This document shows, piece by piece, positions 4,386 to 4,750 of a DNA stretch of 64,000 nt. The stretch comes from Escherichia coli (GTDB lineage Bacteria > Pseudomonadota > Gammaproteobacteria > Enterobacterales > Enterobacteriaceae), in assembly GCF_046105845.1 (NCBI RefSeq), contig NZ_CP151004.1. One strand, written 5' to 3'. A program made the position numbers and the translations under genes. How positions within the stretch are numbered: position 1 is the stretch's first letter; each line of letters opens with the position of its first letter. The notes under the pieces are model-generated. The model worked only from the letters and a program-made list of their open reading frames with translations, did not search any database and was not told the origin of the DNA.

Positions 4386-4750
4386 ACCATAGACAACATG
4401 AATATTAATGTTACTATCTGGTTGAGACTGTTGATAAAACGTAAAAAGGAATGCTCTGTTCCTGCAACTGAACAGGCGTGAAACGCTATCCAACAGGATG
4501 GATACCGTTTTGTCAGCCAGTTTTATAGATCACACTTATGAGTATGCGTGTTTCATTTACGGCCAGGAATGCTGATGATGACAACATTACTACCCGTTTT
4601 CACTAAGCCTTCCACGTTGGCGCTCAATGCTCTGCGCGCTGGTCGTATTTGCCGTTTCCTTCTTATCCCGGATGGAAGAATCCGCTGAACGTCGTTCGGC
4701 GGCAGTTGTAACACGCGTCGTTTGTTTACAGGGATTATGGCGGGTCGATT

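Follow-up and report, generated by a model that had tools for sequence, protein, structure and literature searches.

A conserved stem-loop at the stop codon of the upstream open reading frame yhiY in the leader of the yhiI-rbbA-yhhJ operon of Escherichia coli

The palindrome, the upstream open reading frame and the operon

The window analyzed here, a 64-kb stretch of Escherichia coli DNA (64,000 nucleotides, numbered from its first letter), contains the operon yhiI-rbbA-yhhJ and, shortly before yhiI, a 21-bp palindrome to which attention had been drawn by a first-pass annotation made from the sequence alone. This palindrome is the DNA image of a transcribed and conserved RNA stem-loop, referred to below as hairpin B, which holds the stop codon of a translated upstream open reading frame (uORF), yhiY. 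It marks the boundary between an abundant leader RNA and a scarce operon mRNA, most leader transcripts ending there, and the expression of the operon is Rho-sensitive. The features needed for this description are as follows.

4390..4417, plus strand: sigma-70 promoter of yhiY-yhiI-rbbA-yhhJ, with the -35 element TAGACA at 4390-4395, a 16-nt spacer and the TG-extended -10 element TACTAT at 4412-4417
4575-4688, plus strand: uORF yhiY, 37 codons, MMTTLLPVFTKPSTLALNALRAGRICRFLLIPDGRIR (RefSeq annotation)
4682-4690 / 4694-4702, plus strand: hairpin B (the palindrome as RNA), a stem of 9 bp with the loop GUC at 4691-4693
4751-5818, plus strand: yhiI (open reading frame (ORF) list and RefSeq annotation)
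5815-8550, plus strand: rbbA (ORF list and RefSeq annotation), followed by yhhJ

The palindrome, CCGCTGAACGTCGTTCGGCGG, occupies exactly the positions 4682-4702 as the unit CCGCTGAACG-T-CGTTCGGCGG, with the arms at 4682-4691 and 4693-4702 and the central T at 4692. As described in the first-pass annotation, it is near-perfect: 9 of the 10 arm positions are complementary and the core GAACGTCGTTC is perfectly symmetrical, while the only exception, T4686/G4698, becomes a G.U wobble in the plus-strand RNA. This RNA folds with a dG of -13.2 kcal/mol (z = -2.67 against dinucleotide shuffles), and its 9-bp stem with six G-C pairs makes it a GC-rich stem-loop; the minus-strand fold is weaker (dG -10.0), because the mismatch is A.C there. 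The distance to yhiI, estimated earlier as about 50 bp, is 48 nt from the end of the palindrome to the yhiI ATG at 4751. The distance thus stands, but that description had overlooked the annotated and translated uORF whose TGA stop codon (4686-4688) falls in the 5' arm of the palindrome. The uORF was found by ribosome profiling of initiation complexes (10.1101/511675), and mass spectrometry showed the intact YhiY peptide, with ~1000-3000 copies per cell (PMC12529367).

The TAGACA-16-TACTAT promoter was recovered by a consensus scan, and the same hexamers are listed for yhiI-rbbA-yhhJ by genomic SELEX (systematic evolution of ligands by exponential enrichment) with RpoD (PMC3946193); in other genera the promoter is kept as TAGACA-N16/17-TGTTAGTAT. 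A transcription start downstream of the palindrome would, according to the first-pass annotation, have spoken against its reading. The start site lies upstream of it, at about 4424, and the primer used by Adams 2021 for cloning the entire 5' untranslated region (UTR) begins with GAGACTG, that is, at 4424 (PMC7815308). With both the promoter and the start site upstream, transcription runs through the palindrome, at about +259 to +279. A possible promoter between the palindrome and yhiI, TTTACA-16-GATTAT (4725-4752), was rejected, as it would start transcription inside yhiI and its -35 element is not conserved in K-12 or in other genera.

The 375-bp spacer between yhiJ and yhiI, which contains the palindrome, matches 5412 of the 5426 complete E. 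coli genomes, with one copy in each, and the spacer of K-12 MG1655 differs from that of the window by two bases, both outside the palindrome. The palindrome itself is single-copy in the window even when three mismatches are allowed. A repetitive extragenic palindromic sequence or bacterial interspersed mosaic element (REP/BIME), or another repeated element, was rejected on account of this uniqueness in the window and of the single occurrence of the surrounding 375 bp per E. coli genome. A scan of 4300-4900 against Rfam 15 at a permissive threshold returned a lone match, RefA5, at chance level (13 bits against a gathering score of 91; E = 7.2).

Conservation of the stem-loop and of the end point of the uORF

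Orthologous leaders were sampled at 80 loci through a scan for YhiI, with one genome per species, to which 16 loci from a metagenome DNA scan (almost only Citrobacter was returned) and 8 loci from look-ups for eight YhiI homologues were added. Escherichia, Pseudocitrobacter, Citrobacter and Salmonella all have a stem-loop at this position, with dG values from -9.7 to -16.5 kcal/mol in 15 species, and Entomohabitans possesses a perfect 9-bp stem, CCGUUGAGU/ACUCAACGG, at the position of hairpin B. The loop varies freely (GUC, GUU, GCUU, GCGU, GCCC, AGCU, AGCC, AGCA, GCAC, GCGC, ACAG), its changes including insertions, deletions and transversions. Almost every change in the stem keeps the pairing, and among these changes are G-C to G.U and U.G to U-A. 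Two-sided replacements occur as well: G-C to A-U in C. youngae CCUG 30791, A-U to G-C in both S. enterica and S. bongori, and three pair changes in Entomohabitans.

In the alignment of 20 orthologues, 95% of the cells are paired and two-sided changes are seen in four of the nine pairs (seven cells). None of the 500 shuffles reached the observed pairing, number of two-sided cells or covariation score, and controls with a slid partner strand gave 12-47% pairing. According to a by-eye count, at least nine of about ten independent stem substitutions are pair-preserving, which corresponds to a rough binomial p between 0.0009 and 0.023, depending on the transition bias assumed. RNAalifold, moreover, predicted hairpin B unprompted on three sequence sets.

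The uORF is kept in a different manner. Pfam holds a YhiY family (PF23514), which fits the Escherichia-type peptide only, and NCBIfam has no YhiY model. In the orthologue alignment, the 5' part of yhiY from AGGAAYGCTGATGATGACAACATTACTACCCG is invariant at the nucleotide level, and so is the 3' block TTCCTTCTYATCCCGGATGGAA. The latter is read as FLLIPDGRIR before the stop codon in E. coli and as similar peptides, ending in IP(D/E/N)GxxR before the stop, in C. amalonaticus, Pseudocitrobacter and Salmonella. The C. freundii complex (loci L008, L010-L014 and L083-L098) reads this block in another frame (ending in HSFSSRMESPAE before the stop) and has a TAG stop codon in the hairpin loop; in Escherichia sp. 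E1V33 (L004, 2827-2961) a frameshift in the uORF leads to a TAA stop codon 6 nt past the stem; in Entomohabitans only MRTT and a stop are left of the yhiY-type ORF, and an overlapping ORF of 38 codons ends 4 nt before the hairpin. In all genera with hairpin B (Escherichia, Citrobacter, Pseudocitrobacter, Salmonella and Entomohabitans), an ORF thus ends in the hairpin or a few nt from it. Outside these genera, the yhiY-type ORF of Kluyvera consists of three codons, MTT and a stop (L017, ~2908-2920), and the uORF of Klebsiella, Raoultella and Enterobacter, with 77-97 codons, runs into yhiI out of frame. In the short ORFs of Kluyvera and Entomohabitans, the TGA overlaps the ATG of a second ORF, forming an ATGA stop-start overlap (L017, L109, and L108 at ~396-411).

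Judging from these alignments, the uORF is conserved in its nucleotides and in its end point in or next to the hairpin, and not in its peptide or reading frame. This argues that it is the act of translation that matters, not the peptide, and makes the locus an unusual case, in which the position of a uORF relative to an RNA structure is kept and its peptide and frame are not.

RNA ends at the stem-loop and the proposed attenuator

In the conversion of published coordinates, the K-12 position equals 3635353 minus the window position, the operon being on the minus strand in K-12. Term-seq of cells grown in lysogeny broth (LB) to an optical density (OD) of 0.4 places an RNA 3' end at K-12 3630645, that is, at G4708 of the window, 6 nt after the stem; this end, with its Rho score of 3.34, is marked as falling within a region of Rho termination and is annotated as 'uORF' (PMC7815308). 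The DirectRNA-seq coverage, counted in 800-nt windows on either side of 4708, decreases from 762 to 101 in the absence of bicyclomycin and from 792 to 351 in its presence (PMC7815308), the former counts corresponding to a 7.5-fold drop. In another growth condition, the Term-seq 3' end was found at K-12 3630667 (window 4686), 8 nt after hairpin A, a predicted helix inside the uORF that is described below, and a further Rho termination region lies inside yhiI, at K-12 3630055 (window 5298; PMC7815308). A lacZ fusion comprising the yhiI 5' UTR and ORF was expressed more than 2-fold higher in the rhoR66S mutant, and yhiY-yhiI was listed among uncharacterized uORFs with a downstream 3' end (PMC7815308). 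Overproduction of the RNA chaperone CspD raises the expression of the operon (PMC9765468). Truncated yhiI leader RNAs had also been seen in earlier work, both in E. coli and in Salmonella. Spacings of 6 and 8 nt after hairpins B and A are those expected of exonuclease stalling or of hairpin-dependent termination. The Rho region inside yhiI touches another palindrome, GCTTCTAAAGCCGCTATAGAAGC (5276-5298), which ends exactly at the coordinate 5298 and folds no better than its shuffles (dG -10.9, z = -0.76).

Considering these data, we find it probable, with a good deal of reserve, that hairpin B forms the terminal stem-loop of an attenuator coupled to translation. RNAs not productively extended into yhiI would end there: Rho would terminate transcription a little further downstream, and 3'-to-5' exonucleases would then shorten the RNA as far as the stem. 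A weak stop dependent on the hairpin may contribute to the 4708 end, because part of the coverage drop (2.3-fold, as calculated from the read counts of PMC7815308) is left in the presence of bicyclomycin and other genera have a U-richer tail. A ribosome finishing yhiY would have to melt hairpin B, as the stop codon is located inside the stem (in some species, in the loop or a few nt away), and it would also cover the uORF, the one part of the leader that is C-rich and rut-like: C exceeds G, with many YC dinucleotides, only within 4570-4689 (C/G 1.2-2.0), a composition that alone is no proof of Rho binding, and the RNA downstream of the hairpin is G-rich. By melting the stem and covering the rut-like RNA, the ribosome would render uORF translation and hairpin formation mutually exclusive, and the translation of yhiY would thereby set the transcription continuing into the RbbA operon. 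Two traits of a uORF-dependent Rho attenuator are present in the published data: the uORF is translated, and Rho ends transcription prematurely, either ahead of the first structural gene or within it.

A number of facts weigh against this interpretation or narrow it. The published intrinsic-terminator score at 4708 equals 2.14, below the threshold of 3.0 (PMC7815308), CAGUUGU, the tail in E. coli, makes a poor U-tract, and the 2.3-fold drop mentioned above persists when Rho is inhibited by bicyclomycin. The windows of the Rho score extend over +/-800 nt and take in the stronger Rho region inside yhiI; the score, therefore, tells neither the site of action of Rho nor termination from trimming at 4708. 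As for the stem-loop, the shuffle control is not significant (87/500) when only the 19 closely related Escherichia and Citrobacter sequences are considered, since the variation among them is nearly all of the G.U wobble kind; the significance of the covariation comes from a few divergent sequences (S. enterica, S. bongori, Entomohabitans), and kinship among sequences inflates tests of this sort. Conservation in other Enterobacteriaceae, proposed as a check in the first-pass annotation, extends over the five genera named above; Klebsiella, Raoultella and Enterobacter carry a different hairpin at this place (CUYCGC...GCGGAG in the Klebsiella clade), and Kluyvera is devoid of hairpin B. The whole leader is no more stable than shuffled sequences, with z = 0.02 for the ST131 form and z = -1.58 for the K-12 type. 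Finally, palindromes comparable to the one at 4682-4702 (10-nt arms, at most one mismatch, a spacer of 0-3 nt) number 17 in the window, against 10.2 +/- 3.6 expected from Markov-1 simulations. The symmetry by itself is not exceptional, and the significance of the palindrome derives from its position and conservation. For scans of this kind, symmetry was uninformative here; the informative features were the uORF stop codon overlapped by the palindrome and the mapped RNA 3' end.

Among known systems, the closest one is the uORF-dependent Rho attenuator mdtU-mdtJI of E. coli (PMC7815308). As in yhiY-yhiI, a short uORF is translated there within the long 5' leader of an export operon, a Term-seq 3' end follows soon after the uORF, and expression of the downstream genes depends on Rho (PMC7815308); CspD overproduction, moreover, increases both operons (PMC9765468). 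The mdtU peptide possesses a conserved C-terminus, and the signal in that system is spermidine, whereas the C-terminal peptide of yhiY is not conserved, the frame being different in the C. freundii complex; unlike mdtU, yhiY has a conserved stem-loop overlapping its stop codon. In tnaC-tnaAB, a ribosome at the end of the leader ORF controls the access of Rho and hence readthrough into the operon. By analogy, the same logic may apply to yhiY, with a ribosome at the uORF stop codon controlling Rho; however, the tna ribosome masks a rut/boxA sequence next to the stop codon and no hairpin is involved, whereas the stop codon of yhiY lies within a conserved hairpin and the uORF as such provides the C-rich, rut-like sequence. 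In pyrL-pyrBI, the leader ORF extends into the attenuator stem, the hairpin being unable to form when a ribosome is closely coupled. This geometry is shared by yhiY, but the pyrBI attenuator has a strong U-tract and is Rho-independent, in contrast to the E. coli yhiY hairpin with its poor U-tract, score of 2.14 and Rho-sensitive readthrough. The stem-loops that set the processed 3' ends of transcripts terminated by Rho (Dar and Sorek, 2018; Wang et al., 2019; both cited in PMC7815308) resemble hairpin B in that a stable hairpin precedes, by a few nt, a mapped 3' end within a Rho-dependent region. Protective hairpins of this kind have usually been described at gene ends, whereas hairpin B is situated in a 5' leader, overlaps a uORF stop codon and covaries across genera.

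The leader fold, alternative explanations and the surroundings of the leader

RNAalifold was applied to full leaders in sets of 14 and of 18 sequences and gave the same four helices both times: hairpin B and the following three, P1, P2 and hairpin A, which are listed together with the invariant block at the start of yhiI.

4544..4555, plus strand: 5' strand of the long-range helix P1, AUGCGUGUUUCA (RNAalifold), pairing with 4707-4718
4707..4718, plus strand: 3' strand of P1, UGUAACACGCGU (RNAalifold), starting 4 nt after hairpin B and including the invariant ACACGC
4561..4566, plus strand: 5' strand of P2, GGCCAG (RNAalifold), overlapping the yhiY Shine-Dalgarno sequence AGGA at 4565-4568
4639-4644, plus strand: 3' strand of P2, CUGGUC (RNAalifold), inside the uORF
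4655..4678, plus strand: hairpin A, UUUCC.UCU ... GGA.GGAAG (RNAalifold), inside the nearly invariant block TTCCTTCTYATCCCGGATGGAA
4730..4753, plus strand: invariant block CAGGGATTAYGGCGGGTCGA (alignments), with the likely yhiI Shine-Dalgarno sequence GGCGGG at 4739-4744 and the start codon at 4751

Hairpin B is thus predicted to sit in a P1/P2/A/B junction. In the four-helix fold 95.8% of the cells are paired, against 34-46% in the slid controls, most pairs being invariant or changed on one side only, and the single-sequence minimum free energy (MFE) fold of the ST131-type leader contains the same helices. For P1, 98.7% of the cells are paired (alignment A4), with one pair switching between UA, UG and CG; its strands were also found as inverted repeat I1. 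The potential to form this duplex exists in all species tested, including the Klebsiella clade, at dG values from -11.6 to -18.4, and the two differing positions of the 3' strand in that clade are both opposite U. The 5' UTR block ATGCGTGTTTCATTTA (4544-4559), upstream of the yhiY ribosome-binding site and complementary to the block just 3' of the palindrome, with which it would form P1, is invariant or nearly so from Escherichia to Klebsiella, and only Entomohabitans departs from it (GTGCGTGTTCCATTAA). For P2, 95.9% of the cells are paired and the changes are one-sided only. In some of the consensus and MFE folds the yhiI Shine-Dalgarno region pairs with ACACGC or neighboring bases, a weakly supported contact.

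The transcribed stem agrees with one of the two functions offered in the first-pass annotation, an RNA stem in the operon leader, to which the upstream start site, the compensatory changes across five genera and the RNA 3' end 6 nt after the stem all point. The nature of the attenuator can, however, be read differently. Hairpin B might be a Rho-independent attenuator of the pyrL-pyrBI type, with RNA polymerase stopping at about 4708, a close yhiY ribosome allowing readthrough and Rho acting only later, inside yhiI. Such a mechanism would account for a 3' end 6 nt after a GC-rich stem and for the coverage drop left under bicyclomycin, and, by analogy with pyrL, for the uORF running into the hairpin; CspD, which raises the operon, belongs to a family of hairpin-melting antiterminators; and the tail is U-richer outside Escherichia (CUUUGUG, GGUUUUGUG), the C. 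amalonaticus hairpin followed by GGTTTTGTGA having scored terminator-like. In E. coli, however, the tail contains only three U and the published score is below the threshold, our terminator scan of the E. coli sequence revealed no terminator-like site at hairpin B (tail CAGUUGUA), and a U-rich tract 3' of the stem was found only in C. amalonaticus. Since expression responds to Rho impairment, and the U-containing tail is at the same time the 3' strand of P1, a possible reason for its conservation, we consider this mechanism unlikely, albeit worth keeping in mind. Another interpretation, about which we are doubtful, regards hairpin B as one arm of a sensor RNA, a P1/P2/A/B four-way junction in which invariant nucleotides left unpaired would be the binding site of a ligand, a protein or the ribosome; hairpin B would then be kept for architectural reasons, its overlap with the stop codon being of secondary importance. 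It is favored by the recurrence of the four helices in two sequence sets and in the ST131 MFE fold, by the long stretches that are nucleotide-invariant across genera despite the frame change (ATCCCGGA, ACACGC, CAGGGATTAYGGCGGGTCGA and the 5' UTR block), by the persistence of P1 potential in the Klebsiella clade, though another hairpin replaces B there, and by the lack of an Rfam family match. Against it speak the mostly invariant or one-sided P1, P2 and hairpin A, which provide thin covariation support, an overall folding energy no better than that of shuffles, the want of a known candidate ligand, and the translation of a uORF through three of the four helices, which would keep unfolding them. 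On the same modelled fold it is conceivable, if doubtful, that the whole yhiY leader is an undescribed conserved cis-regulatory RNA of Enterobacteriaceae, in which P2 covers the yhiY ribosome-binding site and the RNA fold, not the YhiY peptide, is the sensor; if so, the leader RNA would couple the translation state (or a ligand or factor) to the expression of RbbA and its efflux partners.

Two further explanations dispense with an RNA function of the palindrome. The other suggestion of the first-pass annotation, a DNA operator at which a dimeric transcription factor would repress or roadblock yhiI-rbbA-yhhJ, draws on the dyad symmetry, a candidate being a regulator of the LacI/GalR type at the Cra-box-like GCTGAAnCGnTTCAGC, as the left half GCTGAA and the right half TTCGGC resemble what we take to be Cra half-sites. 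Genomic SELEX lists yhiI among the targets of PgrR, and an FlhDC peak is located at K-12 3630156, inside yhiI; neither was mapped to the palindrome. The site, however, is ~260 nt downstream of the start site, and the spacing of the half-sites varies, GCTGAA-N5-TTCGGC in Escherichia becoming N6 in Citrobacter (a center of 3 against 4 nt). In Salmonella (GCTGAGCG...CGCCCGGC) and in Entomohabitans (CGTTGAGT...ACTCAACG), one half-site changes along with the other, and about half of the orthologues keep the stem only by means of G.U pairs, which are mismatches in terms of DNA symmetry. With the position at +259 to +279, the variable center, the co-changing half-sites and the asymmetry of the G.U pairs, the operator suggestion is abandoned here as highly improbable. 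A specific search with the Cra/LacI-type pattern GCTGAA-N6-TTCAGC missed the palindrome, and its lone match in the window, at 4239-4256, was at chance level. It is also very unlikely, in our opinion, that the palindrome is a chance inverted repeat without a function of its own, in a leader conserved for uORF coding or for the yhiI ribosome-binding site, with the 3' end being incidental. Comparable palindromes are indeed as common as chance predicts, the flanking blocks are even more conserved than the stem, and the close-set covariation is not significant; yet the pairing is kept where the stem changes and the loop is free (95% of cells, four two-sided pairs, none of the 500 shuffles), at least nine of about ten independent substitutions in the stem preserve pairing, the coding frame over the region is not conserved, and an RNA end was mapped 6 nt after the stem.

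The conserved leader is preceded by the following lineage-specific element.

4418..4530, plus strand: insertion of ~110 nt directly 3' of the -10 element, outside the conserved leader

The insertion is missing from ST131-type E. coli, E. albertii, Citrobacter and Salmonella, in which the promoter is only ~55 nt before yhiY; it is single-copy and carried by 4282 of the 5426 E. coli genomes, including K-12-type strains. It is predicted to fold as a long imperfect hairpin ending in UUUUAU, and a very strong Term-seq 3' end was found at its end (K-12 3630827, window 4526; PMC7815308). Possibly, the insertion serves as an additional attenuator specific to the lineage, or it gives rise to a small RNA of ~100 nt. 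Upstream of the leader, the region 810-4385 contains adjacent paralogous DUF4049 genes, yhiJ and a yhiL-like gene (a pseudogene in K-12). In ST131-type strains the homology breaks at ~4519-4533, and the compared sequences suggest that the DUF4049 block and the leader insertion are a lineage-specific acquisition. Elsewhere in the window, the best palindrome is a perfect one of 22 bp, ACTCTGGAGTCGACTCCAGAGT, at 28815-28836, and two similar palindromes ~100 bp apart (44249-44271 and 44346-44368), built on CCCTCKCCC...GGGAGAGGG, look like copies of a repeated element or paired terminators.

Returning to the proposed attenuator, the uORF, the 3' end and the Rho effect have already been published, and the conservation of the hairpin and the leader fold appear to be new: in the literature, as far as it was searchable, we found no account of the stop-codon overlap, the covariation of the hairpin, a uORF independent of its reading frame or the P1/P2/A/B fold. 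RbbA, in which a ribosome-associated ATPase is fused to an ABC-2 transporter domain, is poorly understood both in its physiological role and in its regulation. Its operon sits behind a conserved, structured, uORF-containing leader, and mutants in the stem, in the stop codon and in P1 offer a concrete handle on the signal that opens it.

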